Origin: a phage
Reading direction: 5' to 3' (one strand)
Sequence record: PZ445411.1
DNA length: 51,129 nt
The notes under the pieces were generated by a model. It saw only the letters and a list, made by a program, of their open reading frames with translations, was not told the DNA's origin and searched no databases. The position numbers were made by a program, and so were the translations under genes. Of the stretch, positions 1-43,388 are shown piece by piece (positions within the stretch are counted from its first letter, which is position 1; every line of letters begins with the position of its first letter).

Positions 1-1569
1 ATGCTGATTTGGGAAGACTTAACAGCGGCGCAAAAACGCGCCGTTAAGGAAATGAGCGAATATTCATTCGAAAAGATGATCCGCATTTGGTTTCAACTTC
101 TCCAGGGGCAAAGGTTCTTAGGAAACTGGCATTTCAGTTACCTATGCAGCGAAGTTGAAAAAATCATCAAAGGCGAGTCACAGAATGTAATTTTCAACAT
201 AACGCCAGGCAGTGGTAAAACAGAGATATTCTCGATCCACATGTCACCTTATGCGTCATTGAAAAGTAAGAAGGTGCGAAATCTTAATCTTTCGTTTAGT
301 GATGGCCTTGTCCAGCAGAATAGCAACCGAATTAAGGAGATTATTGGTTCTCCAGAATGGCAGGAGCTATGGCCTGGAAAGCTGGTAAAGGCGAGCGCAA
401 AGGATTTGATTGTAACCGATGGCGGAAAGGTTAAATTGCAAGTTAACTCGCGTTCTATCGGTGGTCAGGTTACTGGTCTGCGTGGCGGCTACATGGACGA
501 TGGATTTACTGGTATGCTGGTTCTTGACGATCCAGACAAGCCGGATGATATGTTTTCTAAGGTGAAGCGCGAAGCCGGACACATGCGCCTAAAGAACACG
601 GTGCGATCACGTCGAATGAAGGACACCACGCCAATTGTGATGGTTCAGCAGCGTCTACACGTCAATGATTCAACATGGTTCATGACAAACGGCGGCATGG
701 GCGGCATCCAGTTTAAAGTGGTTAGTATTCCGGCGCTCGTTACCAAGGAATATCGCGAAACGCTTCCTGATTGGTTAAAGCCTGAGTTTGATCGCGATGT
801 TTTGTCCAGTAAGCCAGTGATGATTGATGGCGTTGCTCATTATTCATTCTGGCCTGCTAAGGAAAGCGCGGAGGAATTACTTGCACTTCGAAATGCTGAT
901 CCGTACACGTTCGCTAGTCAGTATCAGCAACAGCCTGTTGCGCTTGGCGGCAACGTGTTTAAAACAGAGTGGTTCCAGTATTACGGCAGCAGCGAGAAAT
1001 GCACGCTACCAAAACCGGATCGCTTTGAATATACATTTATCACGGTTGATACCGCGCAGAAAACAGGTGAGCTTAACGACTACTCCGTGATCTGTTATTG
1101 GGGGATGTATAAAGATCGCGTTTACTTCATTGATGGTGTTCGCGGAAAATGGGAAGCGCCTGACCTTGAGACGAATTTTGTTGCATTTGTTAATCAGTGC
1201 TGGAAGCGCAATAAAGAATGCGGAACGTTGCGAAGGATTCATGTTGAAGATAAATCATCTGGCACTGGTTTGATTCAGAGTGCAGCGAAAAAAATCATGA
1301 TCAAGATCAATCCCGTTCAGCGCGATAAAGACAAGGTTACTCGTGCAATGGACGCAGCGCCAGTAATACGAGCCGGACGAGTTGCACTTCCAGAATCGCA
1401 CCCTATGCTGGCTGAGATACTGGCTGAAGTTGCGGCGTTCACATTCGATGATTCGCATCCTCATGATGATATTGTTGATAACATCATTGATGCGGTTAAC
1501 ATTGAAATGAACATGGCAGATGATCCGGTAGGAAGAATGAAAAAATTGGCAGGTTTGCGGAACAAATAG
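1..1569 (+). CDS. terminase large subunit
   Basis: 522-aa ORF directly upstream of the portal gene; P-loop-like GSGKTE near N-terminus; its ATG at nt 1 overlaps the TA|A stop of the small-terminase ORF across the window junction. Confidence 0.75.
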   Translation: MLIWEDLTAAQKRAVKEMSEYSFEKMIRIWFQLLQGQRFLGNWHFSYLCSEVEKIIKGESQNVIFNITPGSGKTEIFSIHMSPYASLKSKKVRNLNLSFSDGLVQQNSNRIKEIIGSPEWQELWPGKLVKASAKDLIVTDGGKVKLQVNSRSIGGQVTGLRGGYMDDGFTGMLVLDDPDKPDDMFSKVKREAGHMRLKNTVRSRRMKDTTPIVMVQQRLHVNDSTWFMTNGGMGGIQFKVVSIPALVTKEYRETLPDWLKPEFDRDVLSSKPVMIDGVAHYSFWPAKESAEELLALRNADPYTFASQYQQQPVALGGNVFKTEWFQYYGSSEKCTLPKPDRFEYTFITVDTAQKTGELNDYSVICYWGMYKDRVYFIDGVRGKWEAPDLETNFVAFVNQCWKRNKECGTLRRIHVEDKSSGTGLIQSAAKKIMIKINPVQRDKDKVTRAMDAAPVIRAGRVALPESHPMLAEILAEVAAFTFDDSHPHDDIVDNIIDAVNIEMNMADDPVGRMKKLAGLRNK

Positions 1570-1596
1570 CACGAATCGACAAACCAATATATAATC

Positions 1597-1624
1597 AAAG
1601 GCTGGTAAATCCAGCCTTTTTTTA
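1597..1624 (+). terminator. rho-independent terminator
   Basis: AAAGGCTGG-taaat-CCAGCCTTT hairpin followed by a T-run. Confidence 0.7.
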
Positions 1625-1638
1625 TTGGAGGAAAGATA

Positions 1639-2919
1639 ATGAGTAAATCACGAATCGTTAAGGCTGACGGCTACAACGAGATATTTAAAGGCGAGAATTG
1701 CAAATCGCGAGTAGAGCAACCATTCTACATGCAGTCAATGCCATACAAGACACTCGCTGACTTTTACGAAAAAGACGGCCTGGCAAAAAGGATTATTGAC
1801 GTAGTGCCAGAGGAAATGGTTTCCCCTGGTTTCACGGTTGACGGAGTGGCAGACGAGGCAGCATTCCGTTCTTTGTGGGATGAGAAGCGATTGAATGCAA
1901 AAATCATTGATGCGCTTTGCTGGTCGCGTTTGTTTGGCGGATCTGCAATCATTGCTCTTGTTCAGGATGGGCGAGCGCTCAAATCACCTGTAAAGCCTGG
2001 AGCTATTCTGGAAGATGTGCGCGTTTATGATCGTTATCAGATTCGCGTTGAAGCGCGCGAAACTAATCCCCGCAAGGTTCGCTATGGTGAGCCAGTGCTT
2101 TACACTGTAACGCCTGGTGGAGACTTGCCGGAATACCATGTGCACTACACGCGTGTTTGCATTATCGACGGTGAGCGGATACCTAACGCAAAGCGACGCA
2201 GCAATGATGGATGGGGTGAGTCAGTTCTTAACAAGAGACTTGTTGAGGCTATTGTTGATTATAACTATTGTGAAACATTGGCAACGCAATTATTGCGGCG
2301 GAAGCAGCAGGCAGTATGGAAAGCTAAAGGACTCGCTGACTTGTGCGATGATGAGGAGGGTGTTAGCGCGGCACGCCTGAGACTTGCGCAGGTTGACGAT
2401 GAGGGTGGAGTAGGCAAGGCCATTGGTATTGATGCTGAGGATGAGGAATATGATGTTCTTAACTCTGATATTAGCGGAGTTGATTCTTTTCTGGAAAAGA
2501 AAATGGATCGCATCGTTTCCCTTTCAGGTATTCATGAAATCATCCTGAAAAATAAAAACGTTGGCGGCGTTAGCGCAAGCCAAAACACGGCGCTTGAAAC
2601 ATTCTATAAGCTGATTGAACGAAAACGCGTTGAGGATTACAAGCCTATCCTTGAATTTCTATTACCGTTCATTATTAGTGAGCAGGAGTGGAGCATTGAG
2701 TTTTCACCTTTGAGCGTGCCTAGCGATAAAGATCAGGCTGAAATTCTGAATAAGAATATCGACTCAATCAGCAAGGCTATTGATGGTCAGTTCCTTGATG
2801 TTGAAGAAGCGCGAGACACGTTGCGAGCAATCGCCCCAAGCGTTAAACTAAAGGACACTAATAAAATCAAGCTGCCGGAGCCAGCGGAGCCGGAGCCAGG
2901 CACACAGGGGAATGAGTAA
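1639..2919 (+). CDS. portal protein
   Basis: 426-aa ORF after terminase; strong RBS GGAGGAAAGATA-ATG; position and size typical of siphophage portal. Confidence 0.7.
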   Translation: MSKSRIVKADGYNEIFKGENCKSRVEQPFYMQSMPYKTLADFYEKDGLAKRIIDVVPEEMVSPGFTVDGVADEAAFRSLWDEKRLNAKIIDALCWSRLFGGSAIIALVQDGRALKSPVKPGAILEDVRVYDRYQIRVEARETNPRKVRYGEPVLYTVTPGGDLPEYHVHYTRVCIIDGERIPNAKRRSNDGWGESVLNKRLVEAIVDYNYCETLATQLLRRKQQAVWKAKGLADLCDDEEGVSAARLRLAQVDDEGGVGKAIGIDAEDEEYDVLNSDISGVDSFLEKKMDRIVSLSGIHEIILKNKNVGGVSASQNTALETFYKLIERKRVEDYKPILEFLLPFIISEQEWSIEFSPLSVPSDKDQAEILNKNIDSISKAIDGQFLDVEEARDTLRAIAPSVKLKDTNKIKLPEPAEPEPGTQGNE

Positions 2920-18944: not shown

Positions 18945-18987
18945 AATCAAAGCGGGGCGCTTGCCCCGCATTTATGGAGGTTTAATA

Positions 18988-19293: not shown

Positions 19294-19294
19294 T

Positions 19295-19966
19295 ATGAGT
19301 TACGGTGCTTTATTAAATCTTAATAACGGCAATCCATTTGTTACGCCAAATTCAACGCCTTTTGTATTATATAAAAAAGTAAATGTATCATCTTCCGCTA
19401 ACGGAGTTTTTCAATCAGCATCAACTAATATTCAAATCAGTTCAAGTTATCCGGCAATAGCATTTTTGAAAACAACTTACACAGCACAACCAACAACAGT
19501 TGGATCAAGAAGAAATGGAGACAGTATAGTTGTTAGCTCAAGCAATCCATTTGGTCAATCACACACTTTAACAGCTTATGTTTTTGCAAGATTCCCTCAG
19601 CCATTGCCAAAATATGGAATGGCAATTTGGGATGAAGGAGGGACGTGTATATTAACAAATGAATCAAAGGTTTTAACAGATCTAGTGACCATTGGGACAC
19701 CTGGAGTTAATGGTGGTATAAATATAGATGAAACGTTATCAGGAAGTTATGCAGTATCACCAGGAATATTGGGTTCTACTCTAATTAGATTTTTTGTTCA
19801 AGGTCAACCACAGGTGATTTCTATTACTGCATACACAGGAGCCAGGTTTAACGGGTCAACAACAAGAATATCAGCAGCAAGCGGTAATAATGCAACTGGA
19901 TCTGTTGTTGGATATACAAATAATGGCAATGCAATAACAGCCATAAAGACTGACATTTACGACTAA
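19295..19966 (+). CDS. hypothetical tail-tip / receptor-binding candidate
   Basis: 223 aa from ATG 19295 with RBS GGAG; Ser/Thr/Asn/Gly-rich, AT-rich coding; last gene before a bidirectional terminator. Confidence 0.4.
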   Translation: MSYGALLNLNNGNPFVTPNSTPFVLYKKVNVSSSANGVFQSASTNIQISSSYPAIAFLKTTYTAQPTTVGSRRNGDSIVVSSSNPFGQSHTLTAYVFARFPQPLPKYGMAIWDEGGTCILTNESKVLTDLVTIGTPGVNGGINIDETLSGSYAVSPGILGSTLIRFFVQGQPQVISITAYTGARFNGSTTRISAASGNNATGSVVGYTNNGNAITAIKTDIYD

Positions 19967-20003: not shown

Positions 20004-20231
20004 TTACAGACTGCAATCAGCGTTTTTAAAGTTATCAATGCTTACCCACTGAAAATTAAACGGATAGCCAGCCTTAACAATAGTGCGGTCGCCAACTCGT
20101 TTTACTCCAAAAATAGCAACTGAATACTGCATACCGCTATTTTCATAAATAGCCGTGCATTCACGCTTAGGCATATTTGCACATCCAGTCAGTGTAACGG
20201 TTGCAATCAAAACGGCGATTAACTTTTTCAT
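20004..20231 (-). CDS. lipoprotein, Llp-like superinfection-exclusion candidate
   Basis: 75 aa; signal peptide with lipobox LTGC; overall pattern resembles T5 Llp as I recall it; RBS AAGGAG. Confidence 0.5.
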   Translation of the reverse strand: MKKLIAVLIATVTLTGCANMPKRECTAIYENSGMQYSVAIFGVKRVGDRTIVKAGYPFNFQWVSIDNFKNADCSL

Positions 20232-20262
20232 GTTGGTATCTCCTTAGTTGTTGTTGGTTGCA

Positions 20263-20304
20263 ACTATACACGATCTTGCGGTGGGCGTTTAGCAAAAAGT
20301 GCTA
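20263..20304 (-). promoter_or_regulatory. conserved box variant + TATAGT cassette upstream of Llp-like lipoprotein gene (minus strand)
   Basis: Minus strand TAGCACTTTTTGCTAAAC, 20 nt, TATAGT, then RBS AAGGAG and ATG 20231. Confidence 0.45.
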
Positions 20305-20415
20305 TTCTGTTCCTTTTGTTCTCCGGTGTTCTCAAATCTGCGGAGGCTTAAATTTAGCTCAAAAAGTGAACAGTAATAGAGCGCTATACATACGAATAAA
20401 TATATATACATACAT

Positions 20416-20455
20416 ATAAATCAATAAGTTAGTGGTATATATATTTATATTTGTT
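20416..20455. repeat. conserved AT-rich segment, copy A (partner at 42248-42288)
   Basis: ATAAATCAATAAGTTAGTGGTATATATATTTATATTTGTT; about 90% identical to copy B; followed by GT-rich degenerate repeats to about 20540. Confidence 0.6.
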
Positions 20456-20675
20456 TTTTCTTGTTATCTATGTTTTGTGTGATTTTGTGTGTCTGGTGAT
20501 TTTTATGTGGTTGTGTATGTGTCAGTGTTTGTGTGCGTCTATATATCTATATCCGTCGCAAATGTAGGAACAAGAGAACAAAAAGACAACAAAGATATTT
20601 ATCAATCACTTACATGTAAATTTTGTTATCCGATTCGTCAGGAACGTTGTTAGAACAGAAAAAACAAAATAACTG

Positions 20676-20703
20676 TTGACTAAACGCATTAAATAGCTAA
20701 AAT
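20676..20703 (+). promoter_or_regulatory. sigma70-like promoter for the rightward recombination module
   Basis: TTGACT (20676-20681), 16-nt spacer, TAAAAT (20698-20703); 30 nt upstream of the exonuclease ATG. Confidence 0.5.
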
Positions 20704-20732
20704 GCAGGTATACCAACTAATGAGGGCAAATC

Positions 20733-21794
20733 ATGAATAAGTTTATGGCGTACACCAGCGAAGAAATGAGCAACGAGCTTTATCACGATCCAGAAGCGTG
20801 GACTGCTGATTATGTTAGCGGATCAAGCTTGGCAGAGATTTACAGCACATGCCCGGCAGCGTGGAAGTTCAAGCCGCGTGACGATAAGAGCAAGGCGCTA
20901 GTTTTTGGTACGCAGTCGCATACCAACTTTGAAAGCAAGGAGCTTTTCGAAAAAACATATCGCCGTGCGCCAGCGCCAGAAGACTTTAAGGATCTGATAA
21001 CCAGCCAAACGGCGCTTGCTGCAAAGCTGAAATCATTTGGCCTGAAAGGTACAACAGGAAAGACTTATCCAGACCTTATCAAAATGATGGTGGATTGCGG
21101 AGAAGACCTTAACGTTATGTGGTTGATTGAGATGATCGCAGAAAGTCAGGCCAGGGCAGATGGAGTTCAGTTAATCGAAGCCAAAGATTACGATGCGTGC
21201 GAGGCAATGCGCCAGGTTCTTGAATCAATACCTGAACATAACGCATGTATGAATAGCAAGACAGCACAACGTGAATTATCGCTGTTCGGTGAAATTAACG
21301 GCGTAAAAGTCAAGGTTCGATGCGATCACGTTGACGTAACAAAGAACGTCACCGCAACCCTGATTGATGGTTACGATGAAAAAGGTCAGCCGATTTGTCG
21401 AGATATTATTTATCCAGAGGCTATTGTGATCACTGACTACAAAACAACAATGAGCGCCAATCCGGTTGAGTTTATGCGCTTGGCTTACAATCACGGCTAT
21501 TATTTAAAAATGGCGTTGCAATGTGATTTATTTAGGAAAGCGTATCCAGAAGAAAAGCGACCTATAGTTGTGCGACTGTTAGCGCAAGAGAAGAAAGAGC
21601 CTTATTTGCCGTTGGCTTTCCGCATGAATAGCGAGCAGTTGAAGATCGGGCGCATTCAGTACATGAGCGTGATTAACCAGTTTGCCATGTGCCAGCAACA
21701 TGACGTTTGGCCTTCGTATTCAAACGGTGAGCCTGAGGTTTGCCTTGATACTCCTGATTGGGTGCGCCGCCAGTTTAAGCAATATCTTATTTAA
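20733..21794 (+). CDS. PD-(D/E)XK recombination exonuclease
   Basis: 353 aa; motifs RCDHVD and ITDYKT fit a PD-(D/E)xK nuclease; upstream of Erf-like and SSB genes. Confidence 0.55.
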   Translation: MNKFMAYTSEEMSNELYHDPEAWTADYVSGSSLAEIYSTCPAAWKFKPRDDKSKALVFGTQSHTNFESKELFEKTYRRAPAPEDFKDLITSQTALAAKLKSFGLKGTTGKTYPDLIKMMVDCGEDLNVMWLIEMIAESQARADGVQLIEAKDYDACEAMRQVLESIPEHNACMNSKTAQRELSLFGEINGVKVKVRCDHVDVTKNVTATLIDGYDEKGQPICRDIIYPEAIVITDYKTTMSANPVEFMRLAYNHGYYLKMALQCDLFRKAYPEEKRPIVVRLLAQEKKEPYLPLAFRMNSEQLKIGRIQYMSVINQFAMCQQHDVWPSYSNGEPEVCLDTPDWVRRQFKQYLI

Positions 21795-22199: not shown

Positions 22200-22856
22200 A
22201 TGAAACTATCAGAGCAATTCGACAAGGTTTTGCCAGCACTGCATAAGGCGCGCAGTTTGTTTGTAAAGGTGAAGAAGGATAAGCAAAACACGCACCTTAA
22301 AAACCGTTACGCAACACTTGATGCCGTACTTGATGCAATCACTCCAGCACTCAACGATAACGAGCTAATGTTGATGCAGGACATGATTGAAAGCGAACAA
22401 CCAAACAGAATTAAGGTTGAGACAACAGTTCTTCATGTTTCCGGTCAGTGGGTAAAATTCTATGCTGAATTACCAATCGTTAAAAACGATCCTCAAGGTG
22501 TAGGATCTGCATTCACATATGCTCGTCGTTATGCAGCCGCAGCAGCATTTGGATTAAGCCAGGCAGACGATGACGCACAGATTGCCGTTAAATCTGCAAA
22601 CGACTGGAAGCGTGACATTGAGAAATGTGAAAGCGTAAACGAATTACAAGAAGTGCTTAAATCAGCATGGAAGGCAAGCGATCCGGCAAGCAAGCAGGTA
22701 ATTAAAGAGCATTACGAAAAACGCAAGGCAGAGCTTGAGATAGGCAAAGCACGAGGATTTAATCCAGCGCAACCAAAGCAAAATCTTGCCTCGCCAGAAG
22801 TTGACACAAAAAACGACGAGCAAGTAAAATCACAAAGTATCACTGATTTTGAATAA
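22200..22856 (+). CDS. ssDNA annealing protein (Erf-like)
   Basis: 218 aa; N-terminal [16 protein letters not shown] motif typical of Erf-type annealases; Ala-rich linker. Confidence 0.6.
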
Positions 22857-22900: not shown

Positions 22901-23353
22901 ATGCATATCATTACTGGTGAGATCCGAAAAGAGCCGCGAGTAAAGCAAATGCCTAACGGCAGCACACTTTATGTGGTTGAACTTTCAGAGCGATACAAAG
23001 ATAAAGATGGAAACTGGCAATATACAAACTACAGTTTCTTTTTTAATGCGAAAACAGAAGGTCTTAAGGGTTGGTATGATGAGGCGTTCCAGGTTGGCAA
23101 GGTTATTTCTGTATCTTGCGACACGCTGCGCATTGAAACGCGTGAATATAACGGAAAGATGTATTCAAGTTTAATGCCAGGAGGATTTGCAAATCTTATC
23201 TTCAGTCAGCGAGGGGAAAGCCAGCAACAATATCAGCAGCGAACTCAAGGAGGATGGGGCCAGCCACAACAACAGAATCAACCGCAACAACCGCAACAGC
23301 CAAGACAAAGCAATCAACCTCCTATGGACTTTGACGACGACATTCCTTTCTGA
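22901..23353 (+). CDS. ssb: single-stranded DNA-binding protein
   Basis: 150 aa; Gln/Pro-rich linker and canonical acidic C-terminal tail DFDDDIPF; RBS AGGAG. Confidence 0.85.
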   Translation: MHIITGEIRKEPRVKQMPNGSTLYVVELSERYKDKDGNWQYTNYSFFFNAKTEGLKGWYDEAFQVGKVISVSCDTLRIETREYNGKMYSSLMPGGFANLIFSQRGESQQQYQQRTQGGWGQPQQQNQPQQPQQPRQSNQPPMDFDDDIPF

Positions 23354-27696: not shown

Positions 27697-28629
27697 TTAG
27701 AGAATAGATTCAGGTTTGAAAACCTTCCTCTCTATCCCTTGTCTGTAATTATCATTAATCGGCATCATAATTTCAAGTCCTCTTTCCTCGGCAGCAATGA
27801 TCGCGTCACGATCTGTGCTCTTACAGACAACTCGCATTCTTCTGTTGCCTTTATACCTGTAAGCCACAATCTCAATGTTAGTTGCATCAAAACAGGCCCA
27901 AACCTCCTGACCAGTTGCAAGGTGAATATGTTGCGCATCAATCCAGTCAACGCAAAGATAGATCGTCTTATCTGTGCTTCCTGTTCTCACAATCGACCCG
28001 CGCGTGTAGTCCTTTGCGAGAAAAGACTTATTACCTTCTTCATCAATGAAAAGCACATTGCACATTTCATCATCAATTTCATCTGAATGTACCAGGTAAC
28101 ATGGGAGCGCGTGAATGTATCGACCATCTTTAACGCCGCATTCATAATAACCATCTTCAGGCGGATATATCCCTTCATATGTACTTAACGGGGTGCGATC
28201 AAATTTTAGTGTTTTCGACATAACTCGCTCGCAGCATTCATGGCTTGCCTGCTTCCCAAACGAATAACCAGAATCACGAGATACTCGCTTATTTGCCTTG
28301 ATCCTATAGTCCTGCGGAACTTTTCCAAGAAAGCGGCCCAAAATATTGATCACTTCGCTGTAAGGTTCTCCGGTTAGCTTCATGATCCAACCAATTCCAG
28401 TATCGTTGCCGCACACGTTGCAGATAGCGCCGCCATCGCCTTTTTTATCGCCAAGTTTATCCGTCCATCTGAAGCGATCCTTTCCGCCGCAGTGGGGGCA
28501 AGATTGATGCTTGCCGTTAAAAACTTCATTTGGAAGACCGCAAATACTTTGTAGCGCCTCACGCCACAATCCTTGCATATATGGGAGAACATCTTCTTTT
28601 TGATAAACCATAAAGTTTTCGTTATTCAT
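27697..28629 (-). CDS. primase-like protein (zinc ribbon + possible TOPRIM)
   Basis: 310 aa from ATG 28629; CPHCGG...CNVCG zinc-ribbon motif; SD GAGGTG sits only 3 nt from the ATG so the start is uncertain. Confidence 0.45.
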   Translation of the reverse strand: MNNENFMVYQKEDVLPYMQGLWREALQSICGLPNEVFNGKHQSCPHCGGKDRFRWTDKLGDKKGDGGAICNVCGNDTGIGWIMKLTGEPYSEVINILGRFLGKVPQDYRIKANKRVSRDSGYSFGKQASHECCERVMSKTLKFDRTPLSTYEGIYPPEDGYYECGVKDGRYIHALPCYLVHSDEIDDEMCNVLFIDEEGNKSFLAKDYTRGSIVRTGSTDKTIYLCVDWIDAQHIHLATGQEVWACFDATNIEIVAYRYKGNRRMRVVCKSTDRDAIIAAEERGLEIMMPINDNYRQGIERKVFKPESIL

Positions 28630-28682
28630 ATACACCTCAAACAAAAAAGCCTGACAGATGATAACATCATGCCAGGCATTGT

Positions 28683-28702
28683 TTTTAGCAATTAGTGCTT
28701 TC
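28683..28702 (-). promoter_or_regulatory. conserved box variant overlapping the HTH gene stop, followed by hairpin and T-run (terminator-like)
   Basis: Minus strand AGCACTAATTGCTAAAAAC, then imperfect hairpin GCCTGGCA...TGTCAGGC and TTTTTTG before the primase-like gene. Confidence 0.35.
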
Positions 28703-29158
28703 AGGTTTATACAGGAATCCGCCAGGTTCATAATCTGACATTCTTACCACTCGCAACATTTCACGCTTATCACATCTCTTTGTGAGCGGTTTTCCATTGG
28801 AATCAAATCGCAGATCTGGACGGCAGAATGAAGCGCGATAGCCTTGACAGCCATACTTTTTGTAATCGTTATGCACCTTTTGAGCGCCAGCGGCTGAAAT
28901 CATACCGCGAACGCGCCACTGATTTACAGTTTGCTGGCTAACGTTAAGACGCTTTGCCATTGCTGACACGCTGCCGTAATACTCAATAAGAATGTCAAGC
29001 CGTGCTTTTAGTCCGGCGCGCACCTCATCTTTTAGAACATAATAACCTGTCGGTCGCTTGCGCTTCTTCTTGTCCTTGCCTCGTCTTGTTCCGTTATTGC
29101 CATTAATTGTGCGCTTGTCAATCTTGCCTGTTGATACCGCGATTCGTTGCTCTTTCAT
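28685..29158 (-). CDS. HTH DNA-binding protein (putative transcriptional regulator)
   Basis: 157 aa; RBS GGAG; helix-turn-helix-like SAMAKRLNVSQQTVNQW; very basic N-terminus; sits at a divergent promoter region. Confidence 0.55.
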   Translation of the reverse strand: MKEQRIAVSTGKIDKRTINGNNGTRRGKDKKKRKRPTGYYVLKDEVRAGLKARLDILIEYYGSVSAMAKRLNVSQQTVNQWRVRGMISAAGAQKVHNDYKKYGCQGYRASFCRPDLRFDSNGKPLTKRCDKREMLRVVRMSDYEPGGFLYKPESTNC

Positions 29159-29172: not shown

Positions 29173-29214
29173 TAGCATTTTTTGTTAAACGATGATTTAA
29201 TGATTGTGTATTAT
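29173..29214 (+). promoter_or_regulatory. conserved box + -10-like hexamer (promoter-like cassette) upstream of helicase gene
   Basis: TAGCATTTTTTGTTAAAC, 21 nt, TATTAT (29209-29214); in divergent intergenic region. Confidence 0.45.
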
Positions 29215-29247
29215 ACACGCCAAATGGCATTACTCAAAGGTTTTAGA

Positions 29248-31287
29248 ATGATTCCAAACATTGAAAAGCAAATATCAGCACTTGGTGAAGCGGTAATTAA
29301 ATCCATACAGGATCGATTCACTGTTGGCGATATTGTTCCTTACCCTTACCAGTGCGTTGCATACGCTGAGATCGCAAAGCGTATGAAAAATTATGAGCAT
29401 CCATTCTTTGTTAAAGCGTCCGTATCGGCTGGCAAAACATTGATGTTTGCAATGGTTGCTCACCAGTGCCGGAAAATGGGGTTAAAAATGATGGTCCTTG
29501 CTCGCCAGGCTGAGATTGTGGATCAGGATTCTGAAGAGATAACAAATCTTGGCGTGCCGAACTCAATCTATTGTGCAGGACTGAAGACAAAAAGCGCATA
29601 CTTTCCGATTGTTGTTGGTTCTGAGGGCACTGTAGTTAATGGGCTGTTTAAAGCGCTTGGCGACTATGTTCCGCACGTTATCGGGATTGACGAGTGTCAC
29701 CAGGTGGATTGGGAAGACCTTGCCGACGCCATAGAGAAAGACGAATCATTTTTACAAATGACAACGAAGAAAGGCGAAAAAGTACCAAATCCAGATTATG
29801 ACATAACGAGCGATAACGAATGCGAAGAGTTCCTGATTGGTGAGGATGGCTTACCAATGGAGGGAACAGGCCGCACGCAATACACTGTCATTATCATGGA
29901 AATGATGCGACGTTGCAGGAAAGCATATGGTCATGAACTGCGCATCTTTGGTATGACTGGTTCGGAGTTTCGCGGAGTAGTCCCGATCCTGGTAGAAGAC
30001 AAAAAACAGAAAGGATTCTGGCGTGAACAGGTTACTAATATTGACACCAACTACCTGATCAAATTCGGTTCTGTTGTGCCAACAAATTTTGGCGACGTTG
30101 GCGATCTAGGGTATGACCTTTCAGAGTTTGAGGCATCCAGCGAGGATGGCGTTGCAGACTTTGACGCTAAAACGCTTCGCAGGATGGAACAAAAAATTCA
30201 TGAAGAAGCTACCATGACAAAGCGCATCATGGAGAAAGTGCACGAGATCTGTAAAAACCGTAACGGCGTACTTGTGACATGCGCAGGAGAAAGGCACTGT
30301 AAAGAGGCAGCGGCAGCGTTGCCACCTGGAACGACTTACAGGATCATTACTGGTAAGACTGGCGATAACCAGCGCAAGGAGTGGTTGAAGGAAGCATACG
30401 AAGGGAAGGTAAAATACATATTCCAGGTGCAGGCGCTAACAACTGGCGTTAACGTTCCGTTTTGGGATACATCTGTCATTCTGCGCAAGATTGGATCGCT
30501 AACTTTGCTGATTCAGCTTTTAGGTCGCGGAATGCGACTACTTAAGAAGTGGCATAAGGAGCAAGGATTCAAGAAAGATGATCACCTCGTTATGGATTTT
30601 TCAGGAACGATGGATGAGTTAGGGGAGCTTTATTTTGATCCGATACTGGAGCAGGCGCAACATCAGAAGCGATTCAGGAACGGTAAAGATCCGAAGCCGT
30701 GCCCTATTTGCGGAACTCTTAACAGCTATTATGCTCGTCGTTGTATGCACGTAGACGAAAACGGAAACAGATGTGAGTGGTTCTTTAAATTCAGGACATG
30801 TGATGATCAGATTGACCCGCGCACTAAAAAGATTATTCAGCGCGGTTGCGGAACGAAGAATGATATTGCGGCCAGGGTATGCAGACATTGCGACATGTCA
30901 TTGATTGACCCTAACGAGAAGTTGAGCGGAAAGCACTACACAAAAAATGACTGGTTCAAGGTGCAATCTTTCTCGGTTGACATGACGAAAAACCAGAAAG
31001 GGATAATATTTAATTATGAGCTTTCCGATGGCATAGACACTTTCAGGGCGAGAGAGATATTTTTCCCTGAATCTGAGAGCCAAATTTGCCGCGCAAAATG
31101 GCGAAGCGTTGCTCTTAAGCACATACCGGATCGCCGTGTTGCTGGCATGGTGGCGAGCTATCGTAATGCACGAAAAATAATGCAATATGTGAATCACATC
31201 ATGCCACCATCGCGTGTGACTCACCGCAAGACTAGCAAGGGAGAAGATAATTTGTACAAGAAGGAGTTTAATTATGGCAATGACTGA
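29248..31287 (+). CDS. SF2 DEAD/DEAH-type helicase
   Basis: Walker A SVSAGKT, DECH box, motif VI QLLGRGMR; C-terminal Cys clusters; start chosen at 29248 (RBS AAAGG) rather than the track start 29182. Confidence 0.75.
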   Translation: MIPNIEKQISALGEAVIKSIQDRFTVGDIVPYPYQCVAYAEIAKRMKNYEHPFFVKASVSAGKTLMFAMVAHQCRKMGLKMMVLARQAEIVDQDSEEITNLGVPNSIYCAGLKTKSAYFPIVVGSEGTVVNGLFKALGDYVPHVIGIDECHQVDWEDLADAIEKDESFLQMTTKKGEKVPNPDYDITSDNECEEFLIGEDGLPMEGTGRTQYTVIIMEMMRRCRKAYGHELRIFGMTGSEFRGVVPILVEDKKQKGFWREQVTNIDTNYLIKFGSVVPTNFGDVGDLGYDLSEFEASSEDGVADFDAKTLRRMEQKIHEEATMTKRIMEKVHEICKNRNGVLVTCAGERHCKEAAAALPPGTTYRIITGKTGDNQRKEWLKEAYEGKVKYIFQVQALTTGVNVPFWDTSVILRKIGSLTLLIQLLGRGMRLLKKWHKEQGFKKDDHLVMDFSGTMDELGELYFDPILEQAQHQKRFRNGKDPKPCPICGTLNSYYARRCMHVDENGNRCEWFFKFRTCDDQIDPRTKKIIQRGCGTKNDIAARVCRHCDMSLIDPNEKLSGKHYTKNDWFKVQSFSVDMTKNQKGIIFNYELSDGIDTFRAREIFFPESESQICRAKWRSVALKHIPDRRVAGMVASYRNARKIMQYVNHIMPPSRVTHRKTSKGEDNLYKKEFNYGND

Positions 31288-31693
31288 TAAAGGCGATTAT
31301 CTGGAGTTTTACGAAAGAGATCCGACGGATACGCTAAAGGAGGAATCACACCAGATCGGGGCGTTTCAATGGTTAACTTATGCTCATCCTGAATTTCTTG
31401 CCTGGCATACGAAAAACGAGGGCGACAAGGGGATCGCCACCGCAATGATGGATCAGCAAGCAGGACTCGTTAAGGGCGTAAGTGATTTTATCATCCTGAT
31501 TGGATTAAAAGGCCGTTATCCGTTTGCAGCAATTGAGATGAAGCGCGTCAATAAGTCTGGAAAGGGCAAGGCTTCACCAGTCAGTAAGGAGCAAAAAGCC
31601 TTCTTACGCCGTGTGCGCGAGCTTGGCGGATTCGCTGCCGTAACATACGGATATAAGCAATTCATGATCGCTGTAGAATACATGATGAAATAG
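31274..31693 (+). CDS. VRR-NUC domain nuclease
   Basis: 139 aa; RBS AAGGAG; PD-(D/E)XK-like D...EMK arrangement (SDFIIL...AAIEMKRV). Confidence 0.55.
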   Translation: MAMTDKGDYLEFYERDPTDTLKEESHQIGAFQWLTYAHPEFLAWHTKNEGDKGIATAMMDQQAGLVKGVSDFIILIGLKGRYPFAAIEMKRVNKSGKGKASPVSKEQKAFLRRVRELGGFAAVTYGYKQFMIAVEYMMK

Positions 31694-31733
31694 CACTTTT
31701 TGTTAAAACAGGCGCGAAGGATTGCGCCATAAT
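31691..31733 (+). promoter_or_regulatory. conserved box + hairpin + CATAAT cassette
   Basis: TAGCACTTTTTGTTAAAAC (TAG is the VRR-NUC stop), hairpin GGCGCGAAGGATTGCGCC, CATAAT 22 nt after TTGTTA. Confidence 0.5.
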
Positions 31734-31767
31734 AACACCAGTTCAACAAGCAACAGGTAATTAAGAA

Positions 31768-32469
31768 ATGAGCAAAGAAACCGAAGTGACATTTGAACAA
31801 ATCGAACGAGAAACATTCATTGGCAATGCTCTTGCTACAGGAGGCTATTACCAGGCTGTTAAACCAAATAAATATTATAAGGTAACTGGCAACAGATATA
31901 ACGGCAGCAATACGCCGGACGTTGTGCGAGATTTGTGGTCTACGCCGTCTGAGCTTGTCGCATGGATGGAAATCGAATACGGTGATTATGACATCGACGC
32001 GGCGGCAAGCAAAGAAAATGCTGTATGTGAAAAATTCTACAGCAAGGAAACAAATTGCTTAAAGCGTTGGTGGGGTAGTAATAAGCATATCTGGCTGAAT
32101 CCACCGTACAGTAATATAACGCCTTTCGTTAAGAAAGCGATTGAGCAAATGGAGCACAATAACCAGATCGACATTCTGTTACCTTGCGACACATCTACAG
32201 GATGGTTTTATGAGGCACAACAGAAAGCAGCGGAAATCATCTGGATCACTGGCGAAGTTTACCAGGAGGAAGGAATAGAATATTCCAGAACTGGACGGCT
32301 TGCTTTCACTTCAGCGCTTACAGGTAAACCAGTGCAGGGAAACAACAAAGGAAGCGTTATTTTCATCATGCGCGAACTTAAAGAAGGTGAGCAGCAGAAA
32401 ACTCGATACGTTAAGATCAGCGACATTTGCCCGTCAGTGGCAGAGCGTCGAGCAAGAAAGCGGAGTTAA
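31768..32469 (+). CDS. DNA N6-adenine methyltransferase (Dam-like)
   Basis: 233 aa; catalytic NPPY motif (WLNPPYSN); no adjacent restriction endonuclease gene. Confidence 0.75.
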   Translation: MSKETEVTFEQIERETFIGNALATGGYYQAVKPNKYYKVTGNRYNGSNTPDVVRDLWSTPSELVAWMEIEYGDYDIDAAASKENAVCEKFYSKETNCLKRWWGSNKHIWLNPPYSNITPFVKKAIEQMEHNNQIDILLPCDTSTGWFYEAQQKAAEIIWITGEVYQEEGIEYSRTGRLAFTSALTGKPVQGNNKGSVIFIMRELKEGEQQKTRYVKISDICPSVAERRARKRS

Positions 32470-34411: not shown

Positions 34412-34454
34412 ACTTTTAATCATTAAAATATAAATATAAATCATCAATTTAATT

Positions 34455-34485
34455 GGGCGACGCATTTTGCTTCGCCCTTTTTTTA
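34455..34485 (+). terminator. rho-independent terminator upstream of lysis cassette
   Basis: GGGCGA...TCGCCC hairpin then T7. Confidence 0.65.
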
Positions 34486-35676: not shown

Positions 35677-35868
35677 TTCAATTCTCTTTACAGTAACCAA
35701 CAAAACGCCGTCCTCATCACACAAATTATGCTCTGATATGTTAAACGCTCGCATGTCAGAATGAATTAGCGTTAACATTGCGTGCATGAAGTCGTCATGT
35801 GAGATTGAACTTACGGCGCAGAACTTCAATATTTTGTCTATTAGCATTTGACGTAAACAATTCTTCAT
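35674..35868 (-). CDS. hypothetical protein (possible 3' part of a frameshifted gene)
   Basis: 64 aa; overlaps ORF 35795-36187 by 74 nt in another frame. Confidence 0.3.
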   Translation of the reverse strand: MKNCLRQMLIDKILKFCAVSSISHDDFMHAMLTLIHSDMRAFNISEHNLCDEDGVLLVTVKRIE

Positions 35869-36187
35869 CGCTCATTTCTCCGATCCGTAAAACATCCCTT
35901 ACCCATTCGTTTTGCATACCATCCAGGCTGTAAAGTTCAAACGAGAAAGGGCGATTTGCTGATCCTTTCTTACACCAGAACTTTCCACCAACTCCATCAA
36001 GATAACCAGCGGTCATCATTCTTGCGCAAAACTCTTTTGAAACGGCAGTAGCAAACATTCTCGGCGTAAATCCTGCGGCCCTTGCTAGCCGCTCACATTC
36101 TCTATGCTGAAAGATAAATTTTGCTATATGTTGACGCGTAAACCATTCGAATGACTCACACCAGCGATACAGATCCAGAAGAAACAT
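35795..36187 (-). CDS. hypothetical protein
   Basis: 130 aa; ATG 2 nt after the upstream stop (TAATTATG). Confidence 0.4.
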   Translation of the reverse strand: MFLLDLYRWCESFEWFTRQHIAKFIFQHRECERLARAAGFTPRMFATAVSKEFCARMMTAGYLDGVGGKFWCKKGSANRPFSFELYSLDGMQNEWVRDVLRIGEMSDEELFTSNANRQNIEVLRRKFNLT

Positions 36188-36189: not shown

Positions 36190-37773
36190 TTACCCCAGCA
36201 ATGTTGGATTTACGAAAACAACGCCATTAATCACACAAATATAATTTCTTTCTTCAAGCATCGGCAGCAGTTGCGTTTCCATACGCTTCATTACGCCAGC
36301 CTGACCAACAAACGGCTTAACTTTTCGTGCTGCCTCATATATGGCGCGCACATTCAGGATTCCCTTATTAGCCTTGCCGTGTCGAGTGATTATCTCGATT
36401 AGTTTACCCATTTCAGCATCATCACCAGCGTAGCCAGAAGCGTTGGCGGCGCTAATGTATGTTTTGCTCAACTCGCTAAACATCAACAATGCTTCCTGAA
36501 CGGTTTCAACCTCAATCTCTTTCGACTTCTGAGGGTATCCGCCAGGATTAAACCAATTTCGGATAGTGTGCAAAACCGAAGCAATCCTGATCACCTGCTT
36601 ATCCATTTTGCCAAGAGCGCCGCGCAGCATTGTATGCGAATACTTTCCGCCATCAGCAAGGTGCGGCTCCATCTCCTGACGAGCCATGTTAAGAACTCGC
36701 ATTGCTGATTTGCTGATCTTAAGCTGGATGTTTGATTCACTCATGATGTTATGGATCAGCTTGAAATATTGGCTTTTCAGTTCCCCATCAACAGGCTCAT
36801 AAGTAGAATCACCGTTATCATCAACAAACTTTCTACGGCCTAAAAATGATTCCTCACGCACAAGCAAATAACGCTCACTTACACCGATACCGCGCGATCC
36901 TGCATCCATGATGGCATTGATTGTTTCATCCTGGGCAATTACCGCCATACAGCCAAGAGCTTTAAAACTCATATTGTTGTCAGCGTTTGCACGAGCTATA
37001 GAAACATGACCATGATCCCATGCTTTTAGCACAAGTTCGCTGTTGGTTTTACGTTCGCTATTGGCATATGTCAGACCTAAAAGGCTGTTAATACTTGTTG
37101 CCTCGTCTGAAATCACAGCAAAGTTACCCTGGCGATTGTTGATTCTTGCAAGTCCTTCCGGCGTTGTGTCGGACACAGGGAAAACGATGTCACACATCTT
37201 TTCCAGTTTTTCTTCCAGATCTTCTTTCTCCTGGTACAGAGACTCCATATCAGCGCCGGAGCGCTCGCTTTTCATCTCTTTTGCAAGACCTGCCAACTTT
37301 GCCTGAATCTTTTTTCTTTCCTTCTTTCGCTGATCATTAATTCTTTCCACTTCAGCAACCATAGGAGCAAGTGCCAGGCTGTTAACGGCAGATTTACCAG
37401 TTGATGGAGGCTGGCTTGTGACAACGTAAAGAGCGGTTGGTTGATCCGTTCCGTGATACTCAACCGTGAAGCGTCCAAGCATTGCAGCAGATACACAGCC
37501 GATAAAATGCATATATGCCGATGATTCAGGGAATTGAACAGATCGAGCAATGTTTCGCGCCAACTTTCCAACAACATCAACATCATTGCCAAGAGAAATT
37601 ACAGGGTAGCGATCGTTTCCGTTATTAACATCATTAACCTCACCCCAAAAGCTGGACGATTGACGGTATCCGTTAGCCTGAATGGACACGCGCACCGGAG
37701 ACAATCCTTGTGCATCAGCTAATTCGATAATTTGTTTTGGTGTTAGTTTATTGGTTTCAAACGAAAAATTCAT
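36190..37773 (-). CDS. primase/helicase-like replication protein (P-loop)
   Basis: 527 aa from ATG 37773 (RBS AAAGGAG); the longer track start 37827 would overlap a conserved box; P-loop-like SQPPSTGKSA. Confidence 0.5.
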   Translation of the reverse strand: MNFSFETNKLTPKQIIELADAQGLSPVRVSIQANGYRQSSSFWGEVNDVNNGNDRYPVISLGNDVDVVGKLARNIARSVQFPESSAYMHFIGCVSAAMLGRFTVEYHGTDQPTALYVVTSQPPSTGKSAVNSLALAPMVAEVERINDQRKKERKKIQAKLAGLAKEMKSERSGADMESLYQEKEDLEEKLEKMCDIVFPVSDTTPEGLARINNRQGNFAVISDEATSINSLLGLTYANSERKTNSELVLKAWDHGHVSIARANADNNMSFKALGCMAVIAQDETINAIMDAGSRGIGVSERYLLVREESFLGRRKFVDDNGDSTYEPVDGELKSQYFKLIHNIMSESNIQLKISKSAMRVLNMARQEMEPHLADGGKYSHTMLRGALGKMDKQVIRIASVLHTIRNWFNPGGYPQKSKEIEVETVQEALLMFSELSKTYISAANASGYAGDDAEMGKLIEIITRHGKANKGILNVRAIYEAARKVKPFVGQAGVMKRMETQLLPMLEERNYICVINGVVFVNPTLLG

Positions 37774-37800
37774 TGATGATAACTCCTTTTTGATGCGGCA

Positions 37801-37843
37801 ATAATACCGCACCAATGCTACCCGCATTTAACAAAAAATGCTA
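37801..37843 (-). promoter_or_regulatory. conserved box + TATTAT cassette (minus strand)
   Basis: Minus strand TAGCATTTTTTGTTAAATG (TAG is the stop of gene 37841-38062), 22 nt, TATTAT; upstream of primase/helicase-like gene. Confidence 0.5.
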
Positions 37844-41357: not shown

Positions 41358-41603
41358 TCATTGTTGATCGTGTTTAACTGCCATCAGAACATCACAGGAC
41401 TCGTTAATAAATTTTGCCATGCGCTTATCATCACCAGCAGGGATTAGCGCGTTAAACTCGCGTTTGCTACTGAACACCGTCACTTTATGGAATGATGCGA
41501 ACGGCATAGACGGAAACTCCACGGTTTTCGTCAGTATACGCAAACCCATCTTTTTGGCCCTTACCTGGGCCTCGGCAAGTTCAAAATCCACTTCACTAAT
41601 CAT
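41358..41603 (-). CDS. hypothetical protein
   Basis: 81 aa; RBS GAGGAG; start overlaps upstream stop. Confidence 0.5.
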   Translation of the reverse strand: MISEVDFELAEAQVRAKKMGLRILTKTVEFPSMPFASFHKVTVFSSKREFNALIPAGDDKRMAKFINESCDVLMAVKHDQQ

Positions 41604-41872
41604 TTCTTGATCTCCTCAGCAATAAACTTCAGGACTTTGCGCAAAAACACTTCATTATTGATGGTAGCTGGCAATTCCTCTTTCACTTCTTGCGGCAGAT
41701 AGATATTACCGTGCCAGGTTAAGCAATCGTAATTGATACGATAAGAGCAAAGCCACTCGCAATCGTTATCCGCTTCCCAAATGCAGAGTTGCAGAACATC
41801 GACAAAATCTTCAACAGTCAGATCCAGACCGTGACGCTTTGCAAAGTTGAAAGTGGTTTTGCTGATGTTCAT
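41600..41872 (-). CDS. hypothetical protein
   Basis: 90 aa; RBS AGGAGA; Cys/Trp-rich. Confidence 0.5.
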   Translation of the reverse strand: MNISKTTFNFAKRHGLDLTVEDFVDVLQLCIWEADNDCEWLCSYRINYDCLTWHGNIYLPQEVKEELPATINNEVFLRKVLKFIAEEIKK

Positions 41873-41911
41873 TTTACTGTCTCCTGATGGGTATCTCGTT
41901 TCGATGTGTCT

Positions 41912-41954
41912 AATGTACCCGATCAGGCGGATTCAGTTTTAACAAAAAGTGCTA
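41912..41954 (-). promoter_or_regulatory. conserved box + TACATT cassette (minus strand)
   Basis: Minus strand TAGCACTTTTTGTTAAAAC, 22 nt, TACATT; lies in the 3' end of ORF 41923-42210. Confidence 0.45.
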
Positions 41955-42210
41955 TTTGCTGACTGGTCATTATTCCATCTATTCCATTAATCAGGAATAA
42001 CAGGAATAACTCATTCTCGATCACCTGGATTGTGAGACTTTGAGTTTGATCAATTTTAATCAGGTGATTAACTTTTTGTGTGGAGGGGATAGAGAAACAC
42101 GGCCCTCTTGCATCCTTTCCTGCAATCATGGCGCGCGCATCTGTTATTTCTGTTCTCCGTGTTATCTCAAATAAGCCTCCGCACTTTGAGATAACAGAAA
42201 CGGCGTTCAT
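41923..42210 (-). CDS. hypothetical protein (first gene of the leftward block; start uncertain)
   Basis: Open frame ends at 41923; no convincing RBS for ATG 42210 or 42249; a conserved box lies in its 3' end where it encodes IALFVKT. Confidence 0.3.
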   Translation of the reverse strand: MNAVSVISKCGGLFEITRRTEITDARAMIAGKDARGPCFSIPSTQKVNHLIKIDQTQSLTIQVIENELFLLFLINGIDGIMTSQQIALFVKTESA

Positions 42211-42247
42211 CAACAAAAAGAACAAAATAAAATTTATATATATACCC

Positions 42248-42288
42248 ATAAAATCAATAAGTTAGTTATATATGTATTTATATTTGTT
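42248..42288. repeat. conserved AT-rich segment, copy B (partner at 20416-20455)
   Basis: ATAAAATCAATAAGTTAGTTATATATGTATTTATATTTGTT; followed by GT-rich degenerate repeats to about 42420. Confidence 0.6.
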
Positions 42289-42544
42289 ATTTACTGTTGA
42301 GCTTGTTCTATGGGTATATGGTGGTGTGGTATTGTTTGTGGTGATATGTATGTGTGATTGTATATTTTTTAATCAATGGTGATGTGTGGTGATTTTTGTA
42401 TGTATATATATGGGTATGGAGCAATCCTCCGTCAACCAAGTAAACAATGTCATTTTTAACAGAAAAACCAATGACTTAACTGAAGCATTTTGTTATCTTT
42501 AAACGCGCCACGTGCCAAAAATTGTTATTAAAACACAAAATATA

Positions 42545-42574
42545 TTGACATGTAGGAAAGGCAAGGCAATAATG
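42545..42574 (+). promoter_or_regulatory. strong sigma70-like early promoter for the rightward small-gene block
   Basis: Consensus -35 TTGACA (42545-42550), 17-18 nt spacer, -10 ATAAT around 42568-42574; 36 nt upstream of ATG 42610. Confidence 0.55.
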
Positions 42575-42609
42575 CATCCAGTTCAAACGCAACAAAAGGA
42601 GTAGACGCC

Positions 42610-43095
42610 ATGAATGAAGAAAATGTTAGTTCTATGTCGCGTAGTGAGTTCTGCGATATGCTTCGCAGCCTGGGCGCGGCAATTGGTAGCGGCGAGCGTA
42701 ACAATGTATTCATGCCAGCACTTTTCTTGTGCGCTAACGTGGAGAACGGCGACGCAATTACAGCATCGTACATGCGCCAGGTGGTAAACCGTGTGCCAGA
42801 AGTAAAGCAAAAAGGCGTGATCAGCATTAAGCGAAAGGTGACTGATGAGGGTGATGGCTTTGTGTTTACGCTCACTGAAGCCAAAAGCAAGCCTCGCGTT
42901 CTGACTGGTGAAGAAATCGACGAGATCGCAGAAAAGCGCGCAGAGAAGGCGGTAAGCAAAATTCTTAATCACCTGGTAAACGTAATGCCAAATATCACAG
43001 ACATGGAAGGCGACAAACTTGCTGGAGCGTGTGAGGCTATCGGGCGCTACCAGGATATGATTCGTAAACTCGCTGGAGGAAAAGAGGATGAATAA
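42610..43095 (+). CDS. hypothetical protein (first rightward early gene)
   Basis: 161 aa; RBS AAAGGAG; 36 nt downstream of a near-consensus promoter. Confidence 0.55.
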   Translation: MNEENVSSMSRSEFCDMLRSLGAAIGSGERNNVFMPALFLCANVENGDAITASYMRQVVNRVPEVKQKGVISIKRKVTDEGDGFVFTLTEAKSKPRVLTGEEIDEIAEKRAEKAVSKILNHLVNVMPNITDMEGDKLAGACEAIGRYQDMIRKLAGGKEDE

Positions 43096-43348
43096 GGCAT
43101 TAATTGGAGTTTTGATTGCAATTGCTACCCTGACCGGATGCGAAAAGGCATCTGAATCAACAGTTGTCGTAGGAGTTGAGTCAGATTTCAAAGTCGGTCG
43201 CCTGTTCACTGTTGACGGATGCACGGCATACCGATTCTATGACAACGGTCGAGCAATCTATTACACCAATTGCAAGGGCGCAACGGATAGCACATACCGC
43301 ATCGGCAAAAACGTAATGCACCAACAAGTCACAACAGATATTAAATAG
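43088..43348 (+). CDS. lipoprotein
   Basis: 86 aa; signal peptide with lipobox LTGC; three further Cys; stop TAG is the start of a conserved box. Confidence 0.55.
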   Translation: MNKALIGVLIAIATLTGCEKASESTVVVGVESDFKVGRLFTVDGCTAYRFYDNGRAIYYTNCKGATDSTYRIGKNVMHQQVTTDIK

Positions 43349-43388
43349 CACTTTTTGTTAAAACGCCAGGCGCAAAGCCTGGCATAAT
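43346..43388 (+). promoter_or_regulatory. conserved box + hairpin + CATAAT cassette
   Basis: TAGCACTTTTTGTTAAAAC (TAG is the lipoprotein stop), hairpin GCCAGGCGCAAAGCCTGGC, CATAAT at 43383-43388. Confidence 0.5.

Follow-up and report, generated by a model that had tools for sequence, protein, structure and literature searches.

The 51,129-bp window, which is the whole stretch of DNA analysed here (sequence record PZ445411.1), is a complete T1-like phage genome of the genus Hanrivervirus (Drexlerviridae, Tempevirinae), and the region at 42211-42609 belongs to a non-coding cis module that this genome carries twice. The right-hand copy spans approximately 42139-42609 and its partner 20306-20732, and the layout of the module is conserved across Drexlerviridae. 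The two copies are tentatively read as a pair of candidate origin-type assembly sites, each beside an early promoter, and this reading is held at close to an even chance. It is based on a core that is the least stable DNA of the genome, repeats that are confined to the two loci, cores that resemble each other within a genome, selection on the sequence, a consensus for integration host factor (IHF) at the centre of a dyad, and a primase that is similar to the alpha protein of P4. The duplicated AT/GT module is an undescribed origin-like or control module. The coordinates of its parts and of the associated genes are collected in Table 1.

Table 1. Features of the two module copies and of the associated genes (window coordinates)
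Feature	Position	Strand	Remarks
Right-hand copy
First real leftward gene	41600-41872	-	
21-nt family-wide element ATAGCACnnnTTGnTAAAA	41937-41955	-	upstream of leftward gene 41600-41872
Conserved non-coding zone (formerly an ORF, "orfX")	41958-42138		right-hand copy only; 93.8% identity in nine relatives, no indels
Inverted repeat TTATTCC...GGAATAA	41970-42009		inside conserved zone
GT-rich stretch	42024-42100		in conserved zone; homologous to first bases of T1 and TLS records
Three direct repeats TGTTAT / TGTTCT / TGTTAT	42142-42165	+	9-bp spacing; iteron- or operator-like
Perfect 12-bp inverted repeat TGTTATCTCAAA / TTTGAGATAACA	42160-42196		13-nt GC-rich spacer GCCTCCGC
AT-rich imperfect dyad	42217-42292		26-nt arms, 77% complementary, centred on IHF consensus
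Perfect IHF core consensus WATCAANNNNTTR as AATCAATAAGTTA	42252-42264	+	5' flank A/T-rich, TATATATATACCCATAAA
C-depleted GT-rich tract	42295-42420	+	3 C in 120 nt; ends in alternating purine-pyrimidine run and GGG
16-nt alternating purine-pyrimidine run (TA/TG)	42397-42412		end of GT tract
Second, promoter-proximal IHF-like site AACCAATGACTTA	42466-42478	+	1 mismatch; ~67-79 bp upstream of -35
Sigma-70 promoter TTGACA-17-AATAAT	42545-42573 (-35 42545-42550, -10 42568-42573)	+	11/12 matches
Ribosome-binding site AAGGAG	42596-42601		8 nt ahead of ATG 42610
DUF7174 gene, first of rightward block	42610-43095	+	N-terminal domain winged-helix-like
Left-hand copy
21-nt element	20287-20305	-	upstream of cor-like lipoprotein gene 20004-20231
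Three direct TGTTC repeats	20308-20331 (at 20308, 20317, 20327)	+	9-10 bp spacing
19-nt alternating purine-pyrimidine run, IHF consensus 20419-20431, common core, GT-rich tract	20400-20545	+	
Promoter-proximal perfect IHF consensus TATCAATCACTTA	20600-20612	+	
Sigma-70 promoter TTGACT-16-TAAAAT	20676-20703	+	upstream of exonuclease VIII (20733-21794)
Replication genes
Primase	27697-28731		annotated replication function
Cro/YdaS-type regulator	28685-29158		annotated
SF2 helicase	29182-31287		annotated
130-aa protein, phrog_2794	35795-36187	-	3 nt downstream of DUF3987 helicase gene
DUF3987 helicase-like protein	36190-37827		annotated

The original prediction held that the region is duplicated, with a partner at 20.3-20.7 kb and a shared segment of about 40 bp, and this is borne out by repeat family D7, in which 20418-20528 and 42251-42361 are 72% identical over 111 nt that include the ~40-bp core at 42248-42288. 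The core common to 42211-42609 and 20232-20732 reads AAATCAATAAGTTAGT..TATAT.TATTTATATTTGTT. The left-hand copy has the same order of parts, from its 21-nt element through its promoter, and lacks the GT-rich zone that precedes the array in the right-hand copy. Both regions stand out in composition and in duplex stability. They are the two 120-nt windows of the genome that are lowest in C, with 3 and 5-6 C (mean 24.4, standard deviation 5.2), and its two least stable 100-bp duplex stretches, with z scores of +4.7 and +5.0 against +3.2 for the third. The two regions also contain 15 of the 20 genome copies of ATATATA, and no alternating purine-pyrimidine runs in the genome are longer than theirs. 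Third in instability is 34414-34475 (z +4.2 for 40 bp), which is located just upstream of a holin-like gene at 34558.

The module itself starts at approximately 42139 and not at 42211. An open reading frame (ORF) on the minus strand at 41923-42210/42249 was rejected as a gene: its substitutions per codon position are 17/12/16, which shows no bias, whereas the genuine neighbour gene 41600-41872 features 6/2/37. Additionally, the frame 41923-42249 has in-frame stops in five of nine relatives, and in GenBank it carries three differing annotations or none, being a hypothetical protein with a different start each time in slyngel, grams and KarlJaspers. The leftward block had been taken to begin at 42210, and this is refuted, as the real leftward gene starts at 41872. 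Because the ORF that ends at 42210/42249 is not coding, the non-coding region extends over 41873-42609 (737 nt), and the homologous region comprises 783 nt in TLS and 700 nt in T1.

The discrete repeats of the module are short GTTMT/AKAAC motifs on the flanks of the GT tract. Their density in the right-hand copy is 11 per 500 nt, the genome maximum (mean 2.5, standard deviation 1.7, z ~5), and the GTT cores of the three direct repeats at its left edge are invariant in the relatives. The spacer of the 12-bp inverted repeat occurs in the left-hand copy as its reverse complement, GCGGAGGC. The GT-rich degenerate repeats that had been proposed for 42300-42420 are present as a GT-rich tract, but the tract is mainly compositional and forms no array: TRF detected no tandem array there, two ~32-nt copies with 72% identity are all that is seen, and G periodicity is absent from the right-hand copy and limited to a 2-nt TG alternation in the left-hand one. 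The proposal that the GT repeats are iterons survives in spirit, with the iteron-like units being short genus-specific motifs that flank the AT/GT core rather than the GT tract. GATC clustering was looked for and none was found.

AGAACA and TGTTAT occur as inverted copies in the AT-rich dyad, which also encompasses the 40-bp segment in common with 20415-20455. The sequence at the centre of the dyad, 42252-42264, agrees with the consensus for IHF sites, is a predicted site and is invariant in the relatives. Three of the eight perfect IHF matches of the genome fall in the two modules, two of them in the left-hand copy (20419 and 20600). Composition-matched shuffles gave P=0.11 for the 42252 copy and P=0.004 for the two in the left-hand copy. 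The counterparts of the promoter-proximal IHF-like site at 42466-42478 are perfect at 20600-20612 and in a variant of the right-hand module termed R2 (phages A16a and morffagbaw), and in T1 the counterpart is a perfect match in the opposite orientation.

A near-consensus sigma-70 promoter upstream of the rightward block had been predicted, and its score of 11/12 together with the invariance of both hexamers in nine relatives, where only the spacer varies, bears this out. It had also been called the strongest in the genome; its score is indeed the top one, but it is tied with a site of 18-nt spacing, TTGACA-18-TAAAAT at 22801-22836 (+), which lies within the 3' end of 22200-22856 and upstream of 22901-23353. 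The ortholog of the 20676 promoter scores 11/12 in T1 and TLS. TLS features only three sigma-70-like promoters in its genome (PMC11447400), with which the promoter reading agrees, and the 42545 and 20676 promoters are counterparts of predicted TLS ones, P51 (named in PMC11447400) and the first-gene P01 (found by a scan carried out in this analysis). These results support that the 42545 promoter drives the rightward small-gene block, whose genes would be immediate-early, and that its partner drives recE/erf/ssb. A good sigma-70-like site, TTGAGT-16-TATAAT at 29237 (-), lies within the TTG-started helicase ORF 29182-31287, so that the true start of the helicase is probably further downstream. 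This site probably serves the regulator-primase operon, and it is a third sigma-70 promoter that is not accompanied by an AT/GT module. The literature searched contained no transcriptome of a T1-like phage and no report of IHF dependence.

Each module is bounded on the left by the 21-nt element, as is also the case in TLS. The element occurs 19 times in the window against 0.2 expected, with other copies at, e.g., 43345-43363 (+), 5823-5841 (-) and 9582-9600 (-). Most copies are oriented like the downstream gene, and two are antisense within the rightward structural block. The longer units feature a small GC hairpin and a -10-like hexamer ~21-23 nt past TTGnTA, which is beyond the normal -35 distance. 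Direct repeats of 21 nt have been described for TLS, where their function is unknown (PMC11447400). The Cro-like regulator (28685-29158), with 55-70% identity across genera, is as conserved as the element and is plausible as its binder.

The layout was compared in eight genomes from six genera: the present window, E6 and A14b (both divergent Hanriverviruses), T1, TLS, Rogue1, Webervirus mtp19 and Warwickvirus SECphi27. In all eight, no 100-bp stretches are less stable than the two modules, with z scores of +4.2 to +5.9 against +3.0 to +4.1 for the next best, and wherever exoVIII and the first early gene were located, the modules lie ~300-400 bp upstream of these genes. Each module consists of a (TA)n-rich least-stable core with short genus-specific repeats on its flanks, and the repeats are almost confined to the modules. 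In mtp19, eight of the nine genome copies of GGTAAGAT are in the modules (0.19 expected). The T1 modules hold all four copies of GTGTAACA and all six of TGTAACA, as well as three tandem GATTAACAC, and the TLS modules hold four of eight copies of GTGAACA, the core of the TLS repeat CGTGAACA (0.2 expected). In A14b the figure is 18 of 57 for ATAACA, with 1.4 expected. Several of the copies around the core are phased at 8-11 bp, and they occur in either orientation. T1, TLS, E6, A14b and SECphi27 have the C-free GT tract in both of their modules.

Within a genome, the left and right cores resemble each other more closely than orthologous cores do between genera. In T1 the two cores align locally with a score of 66, compared with at most 39 to any other genome, and in Rogue1 with a score of 76, compared with at most 51. 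This is the pattern that is expected of two targets of one co-evolving factor. In mtp19 the cores have 133 nt in common at ~88% identity and in inverted orientation, which argues that orientation does not matter. The left module of Webervirus precedes a 21-nt-element promoter and not a canonical sigma-70 promoter, and this arrangement, together with the module-free third sigma-70 promoter, indicates that the core is more than an accessory to sigma-70 promoters. A plasmid database search with the module gave no match, and in a scan of IMG/VR a 14-mer gave mostly chance matches and a 35-nt pattern only seven near-identical loci.

Conservation among close relatives was determined with nine phages. 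The AT/IHF dyad (42211-42300) is the most conserved part of the module at 97.2% identity, compared with 94.4% for the flanking gene and 84.8% for the 5' part of DUF7174. The GT tract is 93.1% identical. The original prediction had named a lack of its conservation in relatives as a refutation, and this is not what is seen, as the tract is conserved in the close relatives and present in the five further genomes listed above. Non-coding identity is 0.92 in both copies (0.97 in the core), whereas third codon positions of flanking genes show 0.84, 0.87 and 0.73; the modules evolve approximately half as fast as these neighbouring positions and are under purifying selection. In the right-hand copy the positions of the TGTT/AACA motifs are conserved beyond the surrounding bases (P=0.006). 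The right-hand module is also mosaic. Some relatives retain just the array, the IHF site and the first TA block, and in others the promoter-proximal half has been swapped along with DUF7174, the sequence of which co-varies with the module variant. In the R2 variant of A16a (31600-31840) and morffagbaw (1420-1660) this half is like that of the left-hand copy (IHF site AATCAATCACTT, TTTTGTTATC, TTGACT), and both phages carry an additional small gene as an insertion. These features suggest that the two modules recombine in nature.

The primase of T1-like phages is homologous to residues 22-262 of P4 alpha (E ~1e-11). When P4 alpha was compared with all ORFs of four T1-like genomes, the primase domain alone gave a match. 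The product of 35795-36187 is confidently predicted to have a winged-helix DNA-binding fold (pLDDT 89), and in close relatives it diverges faster than the helicase, with 85-94% against 98-100% identity. This protein and DUF7174 are candidates for binding the repeats. Fusions of regulator and primase ("Rosetta stone") were absent from 118 homologues, and sequence searches of the PDB revealed nothing significant.

An origin-type assembly would work as follows. At the right edge, the sigma-70 promoter, which is well supported as an early promoter for the host RNA polymerase, would fire rightwards into DUF7174 and the small early genes, and that of the partner into recE/erf/ssb. IHF would bend the AT-rich dyad, and the GTTMT/AKAAC arrays on both sides of the bend would bind a phage DNA-binding protein, for which the two candidates above may be considered. 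Together, IHF and this protein would wrap the arms. The (TA)n element and the C-free GT tract would then melt, aided by the negative supercoiling behind the outward-firing promoters, and on the melted C-free strand the DUF3987 helicase and the P4-alpha-type primase could be loaded in a strand-specific manner. IHF binding, the repeat-binding protein, melting and the initiation of replication are steps deduced from the features described here. The two copies would be two origins, or an origin and a cis-enhancer, like ori and crr of P4 or oriL and oriR of SPP1.

P4 is the closest parallel in several respects. Its ori and crr are two separate cis regions with one short repeat in both orientations and ~10-bp phasing, its ori is likewise in a divergent intergenic region, and the primases are homologous. 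In the annotated P4 record, 13 of the 15 GTGAACA copies of the type-1 repeat GGTGAACA are in ori and crr. GTGAACA is also the core of the TLS repeat, and it resembles the AGAACA/TGTTCT of the present genome, in the modules of which it is found once, at 20366. However, the exact P4 octamer TGTTCACC is absent from the window, and the motif here is GTTMT/AKAAC, while TLS has GTGAACA in both modules. P4 alpha joins primase, helicase and a C-terminal origin-binding winged helix, whereas in T1-like phages helicase and winged helix are separate genes without detectable sequence similarity to alpha. Furthermore, ori and crr are not the least stable DNA of P4, and they contain no C-free GT tract.

Other systems share part of the layout. 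SPP1 is a virulent pac-type siphovirus with two distant origins, oriL and oriR, that have common initiator-binding repeats beside an AT-rich region, and its oriL sits within the initiator gene. It has, however, no sequence or protein homology with the T1-like module, and its initiator G38P is without an identified counterpart. Iteron-type theta origins with an IHF site (pSC101, R6K gamma, RK2) feature an AT-rich unwinding element, an IHF bend, and short direct repeats that adjoin a promoter and a winged-helix gene. P1 pac and P1 parS likewise carry heptamer or hexamer boxes on the two arms of a central IHF bend, and the right-hand copy adjoins a mapped genome end; they differ in that the second T1-like copy is located mid-genome and the pac-like zone lies outside the common module. 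ParA/ParB domains did not turn up in Pfam and PHROGs scans of nine genes around the modules, and no systematic genome search for them was made. Apart from guesses based on GC skew, the literature searched contained nothing on origins of T1-like phages. The TLS study found no origin-like repeats anywhere in the genome and did not describe the duplicated AT/GT-rich module (PMC11447400), and the SU57 study found no origin (PMC7718038).

Several observations weigh against an origin. The repeats of the present genome are merely 5-6 nt long and degenerate, their enrichment in the left-hand copy is lower (z 2.6), and the conservation of the motifs there shows the same trend as in the right-hand copy without being significant (P=0.22). 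The IHF consensus is perfect in Hanrivervirus only, and the C-free GT tract is not found in Rogue1 or mtp19. Neither DnaA boxes nor Chi sites are present in the two modules, and the absence of the former counts here. No counterpart of the origin-binding domain of P4 alpha was found by sequence, and hhalign of the two winged-helix candidates with the alpha C-terminus gave E values of 0.08 and 0.65, neither of them significant. Both promoters point away from the core, which argues against R-loop-type priming, and GC skew tracks transcription only and is uninformative on replication. The right-hand module is swapped among near-identical phages while their replication proteins are 85-100% identical, mostly 96-100%, and the swapping of the module with the downstream gene fits a promoter/regulator cassette at least as well.

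Purely transcriptional control is the principal alternative, and it is judged unlikely. IHF and curved or AT-rich upstream DNA would boost the two sigma-70 early promoters, and the repeats would be operators for a looping phage regulator that shuts them off or times them, with no role in replication. A strong sigma-70 promoter does close each module in Hanrivervirus and TLS and the left copy in T1, ATAAC copies are directly adjacent to the -35 hexamer, and the left-hand copy, the left copy of T1 and the R2 variant have an IHF site, perfect or nearly so, at 65-80 bp upstream of -35. IHF acts at such a position at lambda pL and Mu Pe. The co-variation of the promoter-proximal half with DUF7174 and its winged-helix-like domain is as in promoter-operator-autoregulator cassettes, and a Cro/YdaS-type regulator is encoded. 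However, the AT/GT core is located 130-330 bp upstream of the promoter, far past the range of UP elements, and it is the distal dyad, not the promoter-proximal part, that is most conserved. The genome-wide extreme of instability and a 120-nt C-free strand are not needed for operators, and the third sigma-70 promoter and the Webervirus left module show promoter and module apart. Additionally, the cross-genus identity of the Cro-like regulator suits the family-wide 21-nt element better than genus-specific repeats.

A role in packaging is improbable for the module itself, and the evidence for a packaging site lies next to it. Position 1 of the T1 record is the start of an annotated terminal repeat (1..2800), position 1 of the TLS record is the AGATTT that was assigned as pac by restriction mapping, and the SU57 end, which is backed by read coverage, is in the same untranslated region. 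The T1 and TLS record ends align to ~42020-42100, ~150-200 bp to the left and outside the common module, and by this homology the zone 41958-42138 probably holds the pac site of the present phage. The suggestion that the GT-rich repeats are related to packaging is thus right about the neighbourhood, but the zone concerned lies to the left of 42211 and is absent from the 20-kb copy. If the module were the packaging signal, its repeats would bind the small terminase subunit and IHF would bend the DNA, with packaging from the nearby pac cut. The ends of T1, TLS and SU57 are close to the right-hand module, and IHF-bent packaging sites exist in lambda cosB and in P1 pac, which consists of repeat arrays flanking an IHF site. 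T1 is not known to have more than one pac fragment. The TLS study also reports one pac only (PMC11447400), whereas the left-hand copy at 20.4 kb has the entire common module without the GT-rich pac-like zone. The module does not coincide with the first-packaged end, as taken from the T1 and TLS records; the pac-like zone is also outside 42211-42609, and pac recognition would have no evident need for DNA that melts so readily.

It is very improbable that the module has no factor-specific function and is an AT-rich spacer that takes up supercoils arising between divergent transcription units or attracts H-NS or Fis, with the copies kept similar by RecE/Erf gene conversion. The longest alternating purine-pyrimidine runs of the genome sit here, each module has a leftward 21-nt-element unit on one side and a rightward promoter on the other, and the left-like half of R2 is evidence of recombination between the copies; however, genus-specific 7-8-mers that are almost confined to two loci, an invariant IHF consensus and conservation above coding third positions are left unexplained. 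A small non-coding RNA or micro-peptide, suggested by the long conserved non-coding stretch and by tiny ORFs annotated in some records, is barely credible, as Rfam scans of the whole window gave no family at the gathering threshold, no internal promoter/terminator pair was found, the small ORFs in 42139-42609 are low-complexity ones without ribosome-binding sites, and conservation follows DNA motifs in both orientations.

The structural genes of the genome occupy 1-19966 and are read rightward, and beyond them early and replication genes alternate in blocks. The region studied is 93-99% identical to that of Escherichia phages vB_Eco-B1.3, Henu8, slyngel, KarlJaspers and others. An inverted similarity of 47 nt (79%) between 20176-20222 and 43100-43146 joins the 5' end of the cor-like gene (20004-20231, -) to that of the DUF4884 gene (43088-43348), and their translations suggest related lipoprotein signal peptides. 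Four unannotated GenBank records that are titled "Campylobacter phage" and marked UNVERIFIED (MG065663, MG065643, MG065640, MG065636) are T1-like Hanrivervirus genomes with 90-99% identity to the present coliphage in the compared regions, and the Campylobacter host label of these records is almost certainly wrong.

T1 belongs to the original set of T phages and is notorious for contaminating laboratories. Returning to the origin reading, its fullest form is that T1-like phages replicate from two unrecognised origins, or from one origin and a crr-like enhancer, each with an IHF-bent (TA)n unwinding element, a strand-asymmetric C-free GT tract and genus-specific iterons, which would be read by a small winged-helix protein split from a P4-alpha-like primase/helicase set; the right-hand copy would pack origin, pac and the main early promoter into ~700 bp inside the terminal redundancy. 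This proposal is possible and is held with clearly less than even confidence. The analysis provides two precise, testable origin candidates per family member and candidate binding proteins for them, and it shows that an ORF carried by several GenBank records is spurious. It also defines compact early promoters and cis elements that are useful for engineering T1-like phages, e.g. those of the BASEL collection. The 2024 paper on the TLS archetype counts basic regulation as an open question (PMC11447400). If the proposal is true, the presence of the hub inside the terminal redundancy means that each first-headful virion would have the hub at both ends, and the clustering of pac, origin and early promoter there would be an instructive example of genome design.

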